64,000 nt of DNA from Glaucostegus cemiculus (taxonomy: Eukaryota). Under the pieces are notes generated by a model. It made no database searches, had not been told where the DNA came from, and saw nothing but the letters and a program-made list of their open reading frames with translations. Both the position numbers and the translations under genes were made by a program. The stretch lies in assembly GCA_976551045.1 (NCBI GenBank), contig CDPCPM010000017.1, positions 4,154,001-4,218,000 of the forward strand, in the 5' to 3' direction. Of the stretch, positions 2,050 to 59,309 are shown in pieces. How positions within the stretch are numbered: position 1 is the stretch's first letter; every line of letters starts with the position of its first letter.

Positions 2050-3140
2050 TAAAATCAAATTGGGCAGAAAATAGAAACAGCAAAGATAACTAAAGGATTA
2101 ATATGGATGAAAAAATTAGAGTATAAGATAAAACCAGCTGGGAATGTTAAACAAATTGTAAGAGTTTCCACAGATTATTAAAAAAAAGAGTTAACAAAGT
2201 GAACATGGGTAGAAAGTGAGTTCTGGGGAATTAATAATTGAAAATAAGGAGATGGCAGATAAACAGGTATTTTGCTCTGGACTTCACCAAAGAAAAAATA
2301 TGTAGCATCCAGAAGCAATTGCAAATCGAAAATGAGAAGGGAGGGAGGAACTCAAGGAAAGTGGTACTGAGCAAATTGTTGGAGCTGCTGAGTTACAAGT
2401 CCCCATGTCCTGATGACTCGATTCCAAGCTAGTGAGATAGTTGACATTTTCCTAATTTTCCAAATTTTCCTAAGTTCATGAAAGGTTCCATTAGATTGGA
2501 AAACAGTTACTGCTTTTGTGCCTCCTGCCCAATAGTAGCTCCAAGAAGATTGCACGGCCCAGATGGTGGGCATCTTTGATGATAGATGTTGCCTTTTTGA
2601 GGCAGCACCTCAAGTAGATACAATCAATGGTAGAAGGCATGTGCCTGTGATGTATTGGGCCGAGTCCACTACTCTCTACAGCTTCCTATGTTCCTGCGCA
2701 TTCGAATTGCCAGACCAGACCATGATACAACCAGTCAGGATACTTTGAACAGTTCATCTGTGGAAGTTTCTCAGAGCATTCGGTGACATGCAGAACCTCT
2801 TTAACATCCTAAGAAAGTAGAGGCTGGTGAATGTGCAGATGATTTTTCCTCCAGTGAGAGAATCCAGATATAGGGGGTCACGATTTAAAATTAAAAGATT
2901 ATCCATTTAGGGCAGAGATATCATGATATTTTTTTTCCCCCGAGGATCTCTTCCTCATTGAGCTGTGACAGCAGTCCCTTTAATTTTTTTTTAAAGCAGA
3001 GGTGGATAGATTCTTGAAAAGCAAAGGGATGTAAGTTACTGACAGTAAGTGGGAATATGGAGTTGAGCTAACAAACAAGCTGTGCACCTACTGATGAGCA
3101 GAGGCATCTTGAGGGGCCAGATGGCCCACTCCTGCTAATT
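2050..3140 (+). mobile_element. Decayed CR1 LINE with internal deletion, interrupted by a Rex1-type fragment
   Basis: ORF2 remnant (KVVLSKLLELLSYKSPCPD; gttccattagattggaaaacag, DWK-A-V motif) before 2520. CR1 3' end after 2830 (gaggtggatagattcttg...gaggggccagatggcccactcctgct). Confidence 0.75.
2520..2830 (-). mobile_element. Rex1/Babar-type LINE fragment nested in CR1
   Basis: Reverse-complement homolog of about 6940-7170; the ORF-track peptides share VMYWAESTTLxSFLxSCxFxLxxQTMxQPVRIL. Confidence 0.75.
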
Positions 3141-3319
3141 CATATACTGATATTCAAACACCTGCATGGTATTCTAACCGGGAATATTTACTGAGATCAA
3201 CGGTGTCAAGAAATCAGTTAATACAGATGTTCAAAGGATTTGCTCTGGATACTTTACTGAATATGATACCTCTGTTGGCACACCCATTAAAGCCCACTCA
3301 GCCAAGGGTTTTAATGATT

Positions 3320-4069
3320 ACTGACCTTGAAGATAGCTGCCCATGATCTCTGTAGCATGGACTTCAGTATTACTGTTGTTGGTAGTTTTCATGTTGGTAG
3401 ACATCCATGCTACAATATGTGGTTGTAGTGACCTTGCAATGCCGGTCTTCGTCATTGTTACATCAAGATATGGTAATGACTTTGGATTTTCTACACAAGT
3501 TAACAGGAAATTCCCAAAGATTCAGGAGCCAACATCCTTCCCAGAGTAATCAAAAGAAATCAGTGATCTAACAAGAATCTCAGGGATTTACTCTCACTGC
3601 AAGGTAGGCTGAAAATGTTACACTTTGTTGCGTGAGGTGCAAGCTAGTTTATAATGGAATACTAAGTCATGATTACTGCTTAACTTTTGCTCAAGCCTCA
3701 TAATATTAACCTTAAATATATTTAGATTGTCAACACCTGAGAAATATTTCAAAATATTGAAATATTTTAAAATTTATAATGACTTACTTTATGCCTTATA
3801 GGATTTAATTGTGATACTTCAAACTTAATTATTTGCATGTTTCAATCTATAGTCTTTATTTTGAAAGATTTTTAAAATAGCTAAAAAGTGTTCTTCTTCC
3901 TTCGTAGTTTTCTGTGAGAATTCTTCCATGTGATAGGTGTCCAGCAGCTTGATGACATCATGACCACAGTATGCAGGGATCCCTTTGAACAGATGGCTGA
4001 AAACTACCAACAACAGTAATACTGAAGTCCATGCTACAGAGATCATGGGCAGCTATCTTCCAGGTCAGT
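3320..4069. repeat. 72-bp inverted repeat pair (3320-3391 and 3998-4069) flanking a 606-bp spacer
   Basis: actgaccttgaagatagc...ggtagttttca is the reverse complement of tgaaaactacc...gctatcttccaggtcagt, with 1 mismatch. Confidence 0.95.
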
Positions 4070-6659
4070 GACAAGTGCATGACCATTTGCCATTGGCATT
4101 GACCACAAAATCCAAACCAATGTCGAATATTCAATTAAAAGTCAGTATAAATTATACATGGATATCAGATTTCTATTTTTCAATTTTTTATTTTAATGAT
4201 AATTAAGACTGGCTCAATGTTTACTGCGATCCTTTAGACTGCATATTATATTGATGTAAACATGAACAGGAAAACATTTCAGTTGGAATGATATTCCTCT
4301 ATTCACTATTTTAACACCTGGATAAAATAGTGTAGGAGCAGAAGGTTCATTTATTCTTTATATCTTTTTCAATAGATATTCTCCATATCTTTTTCAATTT
4401 TCTAAAAAGGCAATAAACCATTAACCCTTTCAAGGTCAGTTATCTTAAAAATATCAAAGGATGTTCTCCTGATCAAAGCTTTATTTTTCCCTCACATACC
4501 ACATTCAGCACCCAGAAGTTTCAACATCATGCACCTAATTCCCCAAGGGGAGCTCAGATGATGCCCGCCTGGGTCCATGCAAGAGAACAATCAGCTAGAG
4601 TTCCTGGCTATAGCTTTATGTTGGCAATGAAAGAAAAACCCAGTGTTGGAAACCTTAAATAAATAGAAAATGTCAGGAATGAAATGAGTTCTCATGCAGG
4701 GTCTGACCTGAAATACTGACCTATCATTCTCTTTCAGACACTTATCAATGGTAAATTTCCAGAGTATTCTGATTTTATTTTGTAAGCTCATGATTCTCTT
4801 CATATTCTGAACAGCTCACACATACATAAAGCCCTCATGCTACATTCCAACATATTTTTTGTGTATGGTGTCAGTGCTCAAAATTTTAATGTATTCACTT
4901 CATTTCATCCAACTTTTAAAAATGTTCATCAGTTCAAATTTGCTAATAAAGAACATAGTGTGATATAAAATTCACACAACTTGTGAACTCAACCGGGGAT
5001 AATACAAATATGACTTCATCCCTCAATATAATTAGACGCACTCACTGTATAAATATACAGCATCAGGACTCATGGGACATCTCCTTGTGATAGCAATGAC
5101 CAGATGTCAGGGACTGAGAAAGCAGAAAGGGAGAGGAATGGAGAGCGAGAGAAAATATAGGCAACAAACAGGCTAGAAAGTACAAAAGAACATTAAAAAT
5201 ACTTACGGAGAAAATGCAAGAATTTAATTGTCAAACGTAAGAAAAATTAGAAAGGAAGAAACAGCAGATAAAAAATGCAGAAGGGAAAAAAAGATGAAAA
5301 TTAGGAGATACTTGAAAACTTGCATAAGCATTCATGCTCAATATTTCTGTTTGTTCTAAATACTTACGTCCATATTTAAAATGGAAAAAACCTAGGTAAA
5401 GTTTTTACATGAAATTTTAACTCCCCGTTGAGGTGCCACAGTACTAATAATGGTGGAAGGATAAATTTCAGTGGTACAAGCAATTCCAAAGACAGAGGCA
5501 AGTAACAATCTCCCTTGCAAGGATGACCATCAGTCCTTTGAAACACCATCCCCATTTCACTTTCAAGACCATCTCTCACCTATTTTTGACCACTGCTTCT
5601 GCTTGCAAATCTTTGGCTTTGCTTTAACCTTCAGTTTAGGCACAGGAGCAACCTTCAGCTTGCTCCTTTTCTTATCAAGTTGATATAATCTTCAGATCAA
5701 CTTGCTAAAGCACCCAGACCAACCTGACTGAATGACAAGTTTACATTGGCAATTCCAATTAGAATGACAGATATATGACTTTAAACTAAGCGTATAAGAA
5801 TATAATGTTTGATATTAGAAAGGCACCTGAACTGCAGATCTGCCCCGATCAACAAATCCCTCCCCTGCAACTTCACTTTCAAAACTTTCATCCATTTGTA
5901 TACTACATAATTTACAAAGAAAATTAGCAAAACTATATACAAACTAAGGTCGGCAAACATTATCATGATGTATGGGTATAGATATTTCTTCTGTCTTGCA
6001 TGACTTAAGAAAAACTATTCCTCTTGTAAACTGGATTCCTAGATGCATTGCAATTAACAGAAATGAATTTCATGCATTCAAGTAGTATTCATGCAGCTAT
6101 ATCTTTATATTATAGGAAAAAAATAACTGAATAATTAATCATGTTCAGACTTATTTTTCATTGAAAAAGTAATAACTGCAAATTAATAAACCATTTTCAG
6201 GCAGTGAGAACAATAGCACATGGTATAAGCTCAGTCTGCACATTGGTGGAAGAGGATAAGAATCTGAAGTGGAAGTTCTGCTGAGCCTTTGTTCCACTTG
6301 ACAAGGCTGGCTAAAATTCCAGTGTGCAAGACAGGGAAGAAAATCACAAATCACCTATTACAGCCTCATGTAGCTGCATCAAAACTGTCATTAGGCATCA
6401 ACAAGAGGTATGAAGAAGCCTGCAGAGTGTAAAAGAAAAGTTCCAAAAGCCTCAGAGATTTGTTAGTGGGATTAGTTCCATCAAATTCCACCAGACTGGG
6501 CCTATGCTGTCTTGAGTATAGAATGAGGTTGCTTCTGTGCCTCGACTTTAGCTGCATGAGAAGCTAACATTTTGTTTGGTTTTTGCAGGCGTCATTTACA
6601 AATCAGAAAGGCATTTTGGTAGGTGCATCAGCAACAACAATTTTTCTTTATACAGCACG

Positions 6660-7485
6660 TCTTGGCCTCTGCACTTCCCTCTGCAACCGGATCCTTGACT
6701 TCCTCATCAGCAGATCTCAATCAGAGGATTGGTAATAACATCTCCTCGCTGACCATCAACACAGGTGCACCTCAAGGCAGAGTGCTTAGCCCCTGCTCTA
6801 TTACTTTTCACACATGACTGTGTGGCTAAGCACAGTTCCAATGCCATGTACAAATTCACCGATAATCCCACTATTGTTGGACAAATTACAGGTGGTGATG
6901 AGTTAGCATGAAGGGTAAGAAGGTTCAGCATGTCACTGAACACTCCAACAAACTTCTACAGATGTACCATTGATAATATCCTGACTGGTTGCATCATGGT
7001 CTGGTACAGCAATTTGAATGTGCAAGAATGCAAGAAGCTGCATAGAGTAGTGGACTCTGCCCAATACATCACAGCATATCCCTCCCCACCATCAAAATCA
7101 TCTACATGAGACATTGTCTCAAGAAGACAGTTATCATCAAAGACACCCACGTCTGAGCCATGCCATCTTCTTGCATTGGCCTGAAATCCCACACCACCAA
7201 GTTCAAGAACAGCTACATCCCTTCAACCATGCAGTTCTTGAACCAACCAGCACAAACCTAATCACAACCTCAGTATAGCAACACTTTGACCACTTTGCAT
7301 TACAATGAACTTTTTATTCTAATTGTGTTCTTTCTTGTAAAAATAGGGCATAATTTATGCTTAGTTTTTTTTCTGAATGTAGTGTATCTGATGCTATGTG
7401 CCTGTGATGCTGCTGTAAGTTTATCATTGCACCTGTGCATACATGAACTTGTGTATATGAAAATAAAGTCCACTTTTGACTTCAA
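6660..7485 (+). mobile_element. Rex1/Babar-type LINE, RT fragment plus 3' tail
   Basis: RT motifs LCNRILDFL, TINTGAPQGRVLSP and HDCVAKHSSNAMYKFTD (decayed FADD). Tail ends in aataaag...tttgactt. Confidence 0.8.
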
Positions 7486-12256: not shown

Positions 12257-13849
12257 CTACAAGTCCGTTTCAGTACTTGGATCCATACAGAGGGTGTAGA
12301 GGGACTTCCTGATGTCGGCGGTGCTGTTGGCTTTGCAGTGTGTCCCTGCGCCGTTGTTCACCCCATCGCTGTTCTCCAAGTGATTGCCAATGGAGTTTCG
12401 GCTCCTCTTCAGATCCTCCGAGATGCTGCTCTCAACGTCGGTGTCGTGGTGCAGGTACTGGGCTTGCTCCACGTTGTCGTTCTCCCGGTGGTAGAAGTAG
12501 TTGAAGTTGGACACGATGACGGGCACGGGCAGCGCGATGGTCAGGACCCCGGCGATGGCGCACAGGGATCCCACGATCTTGCCCGCCATGGTGACGGGCT
12601 TCATGTCGCCGTAGCCCACGGTGGTCATGGTGACCACCGCCCACCAGAATGCGTCCGGGATGCTGGAGAAATGGGACCTGGGCTCATCGGCCTCGGCGAA
12701 GTAGACGGCGCTGGAGAAGAGGATGACGCCGATGAAGAGGAAGAAGATGAGCAGGCCCAGCTCCCTCATGCTCGCCTTCAGGGTCTGGCCCAGGATCTGG
12801 AGGCCCTTGGAGTGCCGGGACAGCTTGAAGATGCGGAAGACCCGGACCAGGCGGATGACCCTGAGGATGGCCAAGGACATGGCTTGCTGCCCGTTGGACT
12901 GCTGCTCGGCCAGCTCGGTGCCCAGCGTGATGAAGTAGGGGATGATGGCCACGATGTCGATGATGTTCATGATGTCCCTGGCGAAGACCGACTTGCTGGG
13001 GCAGGCGAAGAAGCGCACCAGGAGCTCCAGGGTGAACCAGACCACGCAGGTGGTCTCCACGATGAAGAAGGGGTCACTCAGGCCGTCGTTGGCCGCGCCC
13101 CGGGTGCCGTTGGCCGACCGGTTGTAGCCGCTGTACCTGTCGTCGCGGAACTCGGGCAGGGTCTCCAGGCAGAAGGTGATGATGGACACCACGATGACCA
13201 GCACCGAGACGATGGCGATGCCCCGGGCCGGGCTCGAACTCTCGGGGTACTCGAAGAGGAGCCAAAGTTGCTTCTGGAACTCCTGCTCGGGCATGGGCTT
13301 CTCCTTCTCCTTGATGAAGCCCTCGTCCTCCCTGAAGCGCTCCATGGCCTCGGGCCCCAGCTTGTAGAAGCGGATCTCGTCGGCGAACATGTCGATGGAG
13401 ACGTTGACGGGCCGGCGGATGCGGCCGCCCGACTGGTAGAAGTAGAGGATGCCGTCGAAGCAGGGTCGGTTGCGGTCGAAGAAGTACTCGTTCTTGAGGG
13501 GGTCGAAGTAGCGCATCCGCTTGTCGGGGTCGCCCAGCAGGCTGTCCGGGAACTGGCTCAGGGTGCCCAGCTGCGTCTCGTACCTCAGGCCGGCGATGTT
13601 GATCACCACCCGCTCGGAGCGCCCGCCGCCGCCGCCGCCGTCCGCCACATGCCGCCCGCCCTCCTCCGCCAAACCCTCGGGCAGTCCCGCCAGCTCGCAC
13701 ATGCTGCCCGCCGCCGCCGCCCGGGGGTCGGCGCCGTCCCCGTCCCGGGCCGCCGGGCGCGCCCGCCGGATTCCGCCTCCGCCGCCGCTGCTCGGACACC
13801 TGGCGCCCGCCGCCCCGCCGTCCTCCAACCTCAGCAGGGTGATGTCCAT
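12257..13849 (-). CDS. KCNA5: Voltage-gated potassium channel Kv1.5 (Shaker subfamily A member 5), intronless CDS, 530 aa
   Basis: Contains the T1 domain ([30 protein letters not shown]...EYFFDRNRP), S1-S6, S4 [17 protein letters not shown], pore TTVGYGD and the PVP gate. The N-terminus [12 protein letters not shown] and C-terminus [19 protein letters not shown] resemble the mammalian Kv1.5 termini as recalled (MEIALVPLENGG; DLRRSLYALCLDTSRETDL). Strong Kozak context ggcATGg. Confidence 0.95.
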
Positions 13850-13935
13850 GCCCGCTCCATTAAATATTCATCGGTGCTGCCGCCTCACTGATTTCGCAGC
13901 AGCGAATCAGTCGGCGGGAGGTAGGAGCGCCCAGA
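12310..13935. promoter_or_regulatory. CpG island over the KCNA5 CDS and proximal 5' region
   Basis: Sharp switch from AT-rich flanks to very GC- and CpG-rich sequence, e.g. gccgccgccgcc runs at 13620-13820. Confidence 0.85.
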
Positions 13936-18877: not shown

Positions 18878-18958
18878 CTTTAATACTTGGGCATATTTAA
18901 GATGTAAGAATTGAGTGAATCTCAATTCTTACATCTTAAATATGCACAAGTATTAAAG
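18878..18958. repeat. Near-perfect palindrome/hairpin: 38-bp arms, 5-nt loop
   Basis: ctttaatacttgggcatatttaagatgtaagaattgag-tgaat-ctcaattcttacatcttaaatatgcacaagtattaaag; 1 mismatch. Confidence 0.95.
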
Positions 18959-22504: not shown

Positions 22505-22705
22505 GTGCTGCTGGAAATAATGTGCTAAGATTGTATGGAGAGAGAAAGAAAATTAATGTTTCAGGTCAATGACCCTCCCTCAGAACTCTGAAGAAGGGTC
22601 ATTGACCTGAAATGCCAATTGTTTCTCACACCACTGATGCAGCCTGTTTTGCTGAGTATCCCCAGCACTTTGTTTTTATTCCAGACTTCCAGCATATGCA
22701 GTGTT
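22505..22705. mobile_element. Palindromic non-autonomous element made of two inverted Penelope terminal repeats
   Basis: Central palindrome tttcaggtcaatgaccct...agggtcattgacctgaaa; the arms match the gctggaaat/ccagca terminal family also seen at about 4640, 23150, 25790, 27785, 28750, 40490, 42960 and 50570. Confidence 0.7.
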
Positions 22706-57910: not shown

Positions 57911-59309
57911 AATGTGTAGTAGTACCAACTTGATTGGCCTAACAGAGATGATACAGACTCACAAACAATAATTTCTTTCACCTTCACGTAAGATATTTCT
58001 TCAAAAGAATTTTCCCAATCATAGTAACAACAACTCAACATTTTTTCACATTGTTCCTACAAATTAGGCTATGACCTACTGTAGGTAGTATACTTTTCAC
58101 TGTACTATTGTGTGTTGAGGTGGATCAATTCTAAACAATAATGTGCAAAAGATGCTTATCTGGGAATTCTCTGCCATGTGGTTTATTCACTTTGCTGAAA
58201 TCATTATATTTGTTTCTGCAGGAAGAAAGTGTGCATGCTGGAAAGTGGGTGGACACCAGGTTTTCTCCTTCCTCAAGGAATCACTGTACCCTAATCCCAG
58301 GCACTTTTATAGAGGTTTAGTCACTCGGTAGCTTGCTGTCCTGCTGTTGATCACCTGAGTGTTATATCTGACTGCTTTATCTATTGCATTTTCACACTCC
58401 AGATCCATGGAATGTTTTACTAGAATAAAAATGTATAAATGTAAGTTTTATCACTGAGTGCATTTTAACTTATGGGCCTGGAGTGTGAAAATGCAATGGA
58501 TAAAGCAGTCAAGTACAAAACACAGATCATGGACAACAACAGGTACACAAAGGATTGAGATGTTCGCACAAGGTTGCAGAATGTGGCCTAATTCCTTTAC
58601 GCGGCTGGGGAAGAGATGTGCAGAGAGGGAAGGTAAATACACAGGACTGTACTGAAATGTTACAGGGGATGGGGAAGAGACTGGGAAGATTTGAAATGTG
58701 AACAGCTCCCTTAGAGTAAGCTGTTCTGAATCAATATCTGCCAAATAACTCTTACAATTGCCAAAGTGTTTGTGCTACCACGCCCTCTGATTCCTCAGGT
58801 GGCTCAGCATCATCCTTCAGCTGATTCTCAGAGGGCCTTTACTGCAGCTGCTCCCCTTAATACCTCTGTCAATTGCCCAGTCGTTGAGAATGCACTGTGC
58901 CAAGAATATCTTGGAGATGTTATCAGGGTTGTGCTGAGGAGTAACCCTGCCTGTCACGACTTAAGGACTGATGAAACAGTATGTCTTTGGTACACTCAGA
59001 GGGGAGCCCACAAAGGAATGCAATCATCAACTCTGTTCTCTGCTGGTGCTCAGGTCAGGAGCTGAGGCAGCAGCACAATTGCATGTCCCAGCAGTGAATT
59101 TTCCACATGCTGCACATTGTGCAAATTTACAGTGCAAAATGAATGCATCATGACTGGAAAATCAGGACTACACTTATGTATCACAGTATCCTCTTATGCA
59201 TGTTGAATTAAAGTGCACTCAATAAAAGCAACTTACACTTATACATCTTTATTCCAGTAAAACTTTACAAGCTTCACAGGAATACTACCAAATAAATTAT
59301 GACACTTAG

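Follow-up and report, generated by a model that had tools for sequence, protein, structure and literature searches.

What placed two stretches of 72 nt, almost perfectly reverse-complementary, on either side of a spacer at this locus, and gave each of them the start of an open reading frame with the same hydrophobic leader? The earlier note on the window (the whole stretch of 64,000 nucleotides that was analysed) offered three readings: a tail-to-tail pair of secreted-peptide paralogs, an invertible cassette, or a MITE or template-switch duplication whose reading frames arose by chance. The answer favoured here, with a probability of roughly 0.87, is that positions 3320-3400 are a locally templated insertion, made by a repair of a germ-line break or stalled fork in which the template was switched more than once.

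The inverted arms and the corresponding site in relatives

Self-comparison of the window gives the same geometry as the earlier note, with a 606-nt spacer between two arms that are reverse-complementary at 71/72 positions; the sole mismatch pairs 3328 with 4061, and the arms share no perfect run longer than 63 bp.
3320 to 3391, minus strand: left arm, probably an inverted copy of 3998-4069; it matches the repeat profile described below at internal positions 659-740 of 800, on the minus strand.
3998 to 4069, plus strand: right arm, the putative ancestral donor and an internal part of an old dispersed repeat.
Also in agreement with that note, the arms are better preserved than the decayed repeats around them, a nearby inverted LINE-like pair being only 77-81% alike. 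The feature lies between these decayed LINE-like copies (2542-2798 and 6921-7173), which point in opposite directions and are 77% alike. However, the weak similarity that was claimed to continue past the arms is no better than that of shuffled sequence: 73/200 shuffles score equally well for the inward extension anchored at the arms, 200/200 do so for the outward one, and the best local alignment beyond the arms is equalled by 1502/2000 shuffles. In a genome search, high-identity copies of the arm were found only at the two sites in the window, so that the dispersed copies with the same termini that would point to a transposon were not encountered, and the 2.85-Gb assembly holds only one place for the feature.

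Thirteen public sequencing runs contain part of the stretch, and four of them (X1, X2, X9 and X11) were aligned to 2900-3720. No RNA run is listed among the thirteen, which speaks neither for nor against expression. Both runs that cover the site skip 3320-3400, X1 and X11 having no coverage there. For relatives B and C (runs X2 and X9, one contig each, of 3538 and 3590 bp), position 3319 is joined directly to 3401, with 81 bases skipped; the contigs are about 94-95% identical to the flanking segments 3135-3319 and 3401-3720, and the junction has a 2-base ambiguity and 187 letters on its shorter side. The 72-mer is present once per contig, on the opposite strand and within 2 and 10 bases of the offset expected for the right arm. 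For example, window 3401-3720 corresponds to contig positions 213-547 and the arm to 827-898 in record 28, the equivalent positions being 3327-2993 and 2705-2634 in record 21. The relatives thus retain the spacer and the right arm, and only 3320-3400 is missing from them. In addition, one run without coverage of the site holds a short contig with the 72-mer between unrelated flanks, fitting the right arm.

Since 3319 is directly followed by 3401 in the relatives, and their only 72-mer sits at the offset of the right arm, this arm would be ancestral and 3320-3400 would be extra in the lineage of the window. An insertion is much likelier, we infer, than a precise deletion of exactly the copied bases. 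Most differences from the window are common to B and C, which suggests that they probably form one clade and amount to about one comparison, so that they do not fix the polarity alone. In the species of the window itself, the patch is known from the assembly alone. Moreover, both relatives have 15 extra bases at window position 3531, an indel separate from the patch that took place in the lineage of the window or in the ancestor of the relatives.

The repeat copy beneath the spacer and the right arm

An old transposon-like element underlies the spacer, and its copy runs through the right arm.
3406 to 4118, plus strand: putative old dispersed-repeat copy of about 710 bp, from a sharp-ended family whose profile spans about 800 positions; its left boundary is approximate.
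Searching the genome with 3100-4300 yielded 31 matches beyond the window, whose local identity is 70-87%, and sensitive alignment revealed copies that are colinear through the right arm, such as L007 over 3547-4169 and L006 over 3616-4121. After two further searches the set comprised 72 other copies, every one of them chosen for matching the family; 7 window loci, 5 duplicates and 20 loci of an unrelated repeat (L023-L042) were left out of the counts. The arm region is covered in 43/72 copies, and a young inverted repeat of at least 35 bp within the 3-kb locus is present in none of the 72. A profile of 45 copies, with the window excluded, matches 3418-4122 over profile positions 28-787 of 800 (E 2.7e-98); the left arm, on the opposite strand, aligns to an internal part of this profile (E 4e-8). 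In these alignments the spacer and the right arm form one colinear copy of the repeat, and the left arm is an out-of-place internal piece.

The third reading of the earlier note has two branches. A template-switch duplication with chance reading frames is upheld by the empty site and by the presence of two templates. The MITE branch was rejected for the arms, on their internal position (659-740 of 800), on their high-identity presence at this locus only and on the fact that 0/72 copies have such an inverted pair. Moreover, a MITE would leave an empty site without the whole unit of arm, spacer and arm, and a target duplication, whereas the relatives are without 3320-3400 only.

Regarding the identity of the host repeat, the family loses its conservation abruptly at either end, and the termini of the copies carry roughly complementary short motifs, such as GGCTTGGATTTTGCAGT at the start of L014 and ACTGCAAAATCTAGGCC at the end of L081. 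A 17-base motif, allowing up to 5 mismatches, is found at 8/24 left and 10/24 right ends against 42/2000 control stretches, the motif being taken from the same copies, and a profile-level end-to-end test of the termini gave an E of about 0.05. Based on these complementary terminal motifs, the host repeat is probably a non-autonomous DNA transposon. The copy in the window has the motif at its right end with 4 mismatches and not at its left end. Among ten copies, all heavily decayed, the flanking 3-mer is identical in 1/10 and the 2-mer in 2/10. On its own, the segment 3401-3540 aligned significantly neither with any single copy nor with the full profile, so the window copy is bounded on its left by an end profile (E 6e-5) together with the copy alignment; the insertion site is about 5 bp beyond this approximate boundary.

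A Pfam search on 18 read-through frames, from the window and four repeat copies, returned only 2 sub-threshold hits, and stop-codon counts revealed no frame open along the repeat. The idea of a Penelope-like retroelement was unsupported by these Pfam frames, and 3126-3252, proposed as part of the host repeat by a weak translated hit, had no support in the later alignments or the profile. As described for MITE-like non-autonomous DNA transposons, possibly of the PHIS superfamily (in the account of PMC4482050), the host repeat is about 800 bp long and dispersed, ends sharply and probably has short terminal inverted repeats starting with GG, and no coding domain was found in it. However, the 72-bp arms correspond to an inner part of the host repeat and not to its termini, and a superfamily is not assigned to it.

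Two further duplications were noted among the repeat loci. Two contigs share a 100-bp piece of this old repeat at 96% identity (L076:1501-1600 and L004:1519-1618), the L076 piece being followed by an A-rich tail and flanked by an apparent 11-bp duplication, like a LINE-mediated non-coding copy (class 1 TSIP). Also, L103 has a 169-bp direct duplication (1301-1469 and 1729-1897, 96% identity) overlapping its repeat copy. In the surroundings, the nearest clear gene lies about 8 kb away, in a GC-rich island (12257-13867, minus strand), and encodes in an intact single ORF a potassium channel of the Kv1 (KCNA) type, possibly KCNA5 judging from the ETDL at its C-terminus. The LINE fragments at the flanks would suit the cartilaginous fish presumed in the earlier note. 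Imperfect palindromes are present at 18878-18958 (91%), 22559-22612 (89%) and 58340-58543 (72% self-complementary), and an Rfam search gave one chance-level hit, outside the feature.

Anatomy of the patch and a proposed course of repair

The extra bases are accounted for by two templates, both of them intact, and a third template may have been involved.
3320 to 3400, no strand: putative lineage-specific templated insertion of 81 bp, with no target deletion and a junction ambiguous by 2 bp (AC).
3392 to 3400, minus strand: second templated segment of 9 bp, apparently a re-copy of 4004-4012 and the same as arm bases 3377-3385.
4429 to 4451, minus strand: candidate third template, a 20/23 inverted match across the left junction (3309-3331).
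3404 to 3414, plus strand: 11-mer that is 3 bp away from the insertion site and recurs within the donor, at 4028-4038.
Thus, 72/81 bases correspond to 3998-4069 and 9/81 to 4004-4012. The 9-mer of the second segment is present in the window only at 3377, at 3392 and, inverted, at 4004, and a random 9-mer of the window matches the arm in 267/200000 draws. The patch is inverted, two-segmented and locally templated, with no loss of target, a 2-bp overlap, and neither poly(A) nor a long duplication. The 9-base re-copy, the repeat membership of the spacer and right arm and the absence of the patch in the relatives are all new with respect to the earlier note.

At the left junction, 4429-4440 is the exact reverse complement of 3320-3331, the first 12 bases of the patch. 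A junction-spanning match as good as that of 4429-4451 was seen in 15/5000 simulated insertions and in 26/4000 AT-matched ones (0.3-0.65%), the simulations masking the insertion site's own diagonal. This segment, a match picked out post hoc, would qualify as a third template provided that it is ancestral. No good spanning template was found for the junctions 3391/3392 and 3400/3401 (scores of 5 and 4). Regarding microhomology, 2 bp are present at the outer junction, with possible matches of 12 nt and of 8/11 through 4429-4451, and none was found at the other two junctions. The 11-mer at 3404-3414 has no listed difference in X2 or X9, its pair gives an 11-bp stem in the product, and 11 shared bases were seen in 27/20000 random pairs of site and donor; noticed post hoc, it might have acted as a tether holding the broken end near the donor.

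All templates are on the right side of the site and share one orientation, and it is from this single reading direction that a fold-back of the right end is proposed. A break at 3319/3401 would have been followed by resection of the right end over about 1 kb, and the 3' single strand of this end would have folded back on itself. The folded strand would have copied 9 nt and then released, primed again at 3998 and copied 72 nt, and would probably have hopped through the 12-nt repeat to 4429-4440, gaining 11 more nt that could pair imperfectly (8/11) with the left end and so allow joining. A mirror path starting from the left end, on the sister chromatid or on a lagging-strand template, would fit equally well. 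The substitution in the donor at 4061 probably came after copying.

The patch is filed as a locally templated insertion, and a pathway is not assigned to it. The templated insertions of MMBIR type described in PMC8421209 (MMB-TI), among which are complex inverted germline insertions from several templates, are like the patch in their inverted nearby template and return to the original position, as well as in their use of more than one template, their presence as germline variants and, possibly, their short microhomology. However, that study searched for templates within 100 bp, whereas the patch has its donor at a distance of about 600-670 bp and its candidate third template at about 1 kb. Polymerase theta and snap-back SD-MMEJ, in the accounts of PMC7165422, PMC2943611, PMC11541566 and PMC13269935, resemble the patch in the foldback orientation and the repeated rounds of synthesis, multi-round snap-back synthesis being described in PMC2943611. 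Also alike are the short aborted round and a possible newly made microhomology finishing the join, as aborted rounds are reported to make new microhomology (PMC7165422). Nonetheless, the insertions of this polymerase are given as 3-30 bp, with first rounds rarely above 10 bp (PMC7165422), and its templates peak within 20 bp (PMC11541566). A 72-nt tract copied from 600 bp away exceeds what is typical of it, and this counts against the explanation; the patch would work like one of the narrow polymerase theta TINS but is not filed as one. Longer templated insertions are attributed in PMC5120786 to FoSTeS/MMBIR. Finally, the short-range template switches of great apes (PMC7954356) are likewise species-specific reverse-complement insertions recognised by genome comparison, and 72 nt is within the range of their tracts as reported (median 12, maximum 128 nt). 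In contrast, the model given there has one pair of switches within about 100 nt, whereas the patch reaches farther and comprises two templated segments or more.

Reading frames, rival explanations and significance

The two reading frames begin, as the earlier note claimed, with a common leader of 16 residues, MISVAWTSVLLLLVVF, and their Cys residues, at positions 26 and 27, are present.
3343 to 3549, plus strand: ORF1, 68 aa, apparently created by the insertion, with its first 19 codons within the patch; probably not a gene.
3825 to 4046, minus strand: ORF2, 73 aa, within the old repeat; probably not a gene.
The hydrophobic character of the leader was confirmed, only these two among the 66 ATG-initiated frames of at least 68 aa in the window (about one per kb) reaching the score of ORF2. 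The start of ORF1 and its leader are absent from the orthologous site in both relatives, and the 49 further open codons that ORF1 requires are found in 9.7% of 50000 random frames. For ORF2, the start column is ATG in 3/42 repeat copies and the 73 codons are open in 0/42, its only other match in the genome being another repeat copy, with a stop. Pfam gave no match for ORF1, ORF2 and a third short ORF, and protein searches with ORF1 and ORF2, a weak method for short orphan peptides, found no homologue among proteins of near length. The Atlas yielded no usable hit either, a result that speaks for neither absence nor novelty. The two ATGs are preceded by C at -3 and followed by A at +4, which is a weak start context by the Kozak rule. 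Both frames are probably by-products and not genes, and the shared "signal peptide" would result from an ATG and a T-rich run that the copied 72 bases happened to contain.

Two tail-to-tail genes for secreted peptides, with a shared or gene-converted leader, would explain why both frames are intact and why their leader is the most hydrophobic among the window frames of this size. However, the leader of ORF1 is absent in the relatives, the two bodies are without homology to each other, ORF2 lies in a decayed repeat whose copies have lost the frame, the searches above gave no homologue, both starts have a weak context, and frames of such size occur about once per kb; we regard this pair of genes as extremely improbable. 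The invertible cassette, in which the 606-bp spacer would flip between the arms, has in its favour the geometry of near-perfect inverted arms, and it deserves almost no credence. In the one assembly available, the spacer has the same orientation as in the relatives, judged from the left flank, and is colinear with the intact repeat copies, judged from the right flank; moreover, no long ORF is near the site except the potassium channel 8 kb off. In addition, the perfect run of 63 bp is well short of the range in which recombination in mammals declines, a 20-fold drop being reported as perfect homology goes from 232 to 134 bp (PMC2583991).

That a chimeric or fold-back read inserted a reversed piece of 3998-4069 during assembly is very unlikely. 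This artefact would be compatible with the single place of the feature in the assembly and with the fact that no near-identical run spans the site, X1 being without coverage there. Nonetheless, the single 72-mer of relative B has 0 differences from the left arm of the window, whereas the C at 4061 of the right arm is absent from that column in 26/26 repeat copies, and a left arm with the base of the relative at the mismatch argues against a simple artefact, as do flanks that are otherwise cleanly colinear with the relatives. The C at 4061 is probably a derived base, arisen in the donor after copying, or else the donor was another allele. Such a mismatch also bears on the age of the copy. The arms differ at 1/72 positions (95% interval 0.04-7.5%). 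This is not significantly lower (P 0.08-0.13) than the species divergence of 5-6%, which for the two relatives corresponds to 29 and 25 differing positions out of 505 bp. An inverted copy older than the species split, followed by a precise deletion in the ancestor of the relatives, is compatible with this divergence and with relatives that look like one clade; even so, it is highly improbable, as the deletion must take exactly the 72-bp copy and the 9-bp re-copy with only a 2-bp overlap, and the origin of the copy would still be a templated insertion.

Similarly doubtful to a high degree is a patch that derives from an RNA or cDNA of adjoining sequence, taken up at a break by the route of class 2 TSIPs. 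As these are described in PMC5110952, they have no target duplication of at least 5 bp, no poly(A) and junction microhomology, and the patch is like them in the first two and, with its 2-bp overlap, possibly in the third. Their donors, however, are distant and a passage through RNA is proposed for them, whereas the donor of the patch is local and inverted, and two or three overlapping templates in the same orientation point to repeated priming on nearby DNA. LINE-mediated insertions (class 1 TSIPs) are recognised by a duplication of at least 5 bp and a poly(A); the patch has no poly(A) and no target duplication above 2 bp.

With the locally templated insertion as the preferred reading, the significance of the locus depends on what the patch encodes. 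The proposal that one repair event put a start codon and a hydrophobic leader ahead of non-coding DNA and thereby made a translated and secreted peptide of 68 aa, a de novo gene birth in which existing repeats of 11 and 12 bases would have guided the template switching across 0.6-1 kb, is given exceedingly little weight here, and translation of ORF1, if shown, would be what makes the feature matter. As an ordinary repair scar, the patch matters little. It is a clean and datable example of a templated insertion in several steps, with a longer tract and a farther template than most experimental examples, and it is usable as a species marker. Moreover, it illustrates that a templated copy can mimic a paralogous pair of signal-peptide genes or a transposon.
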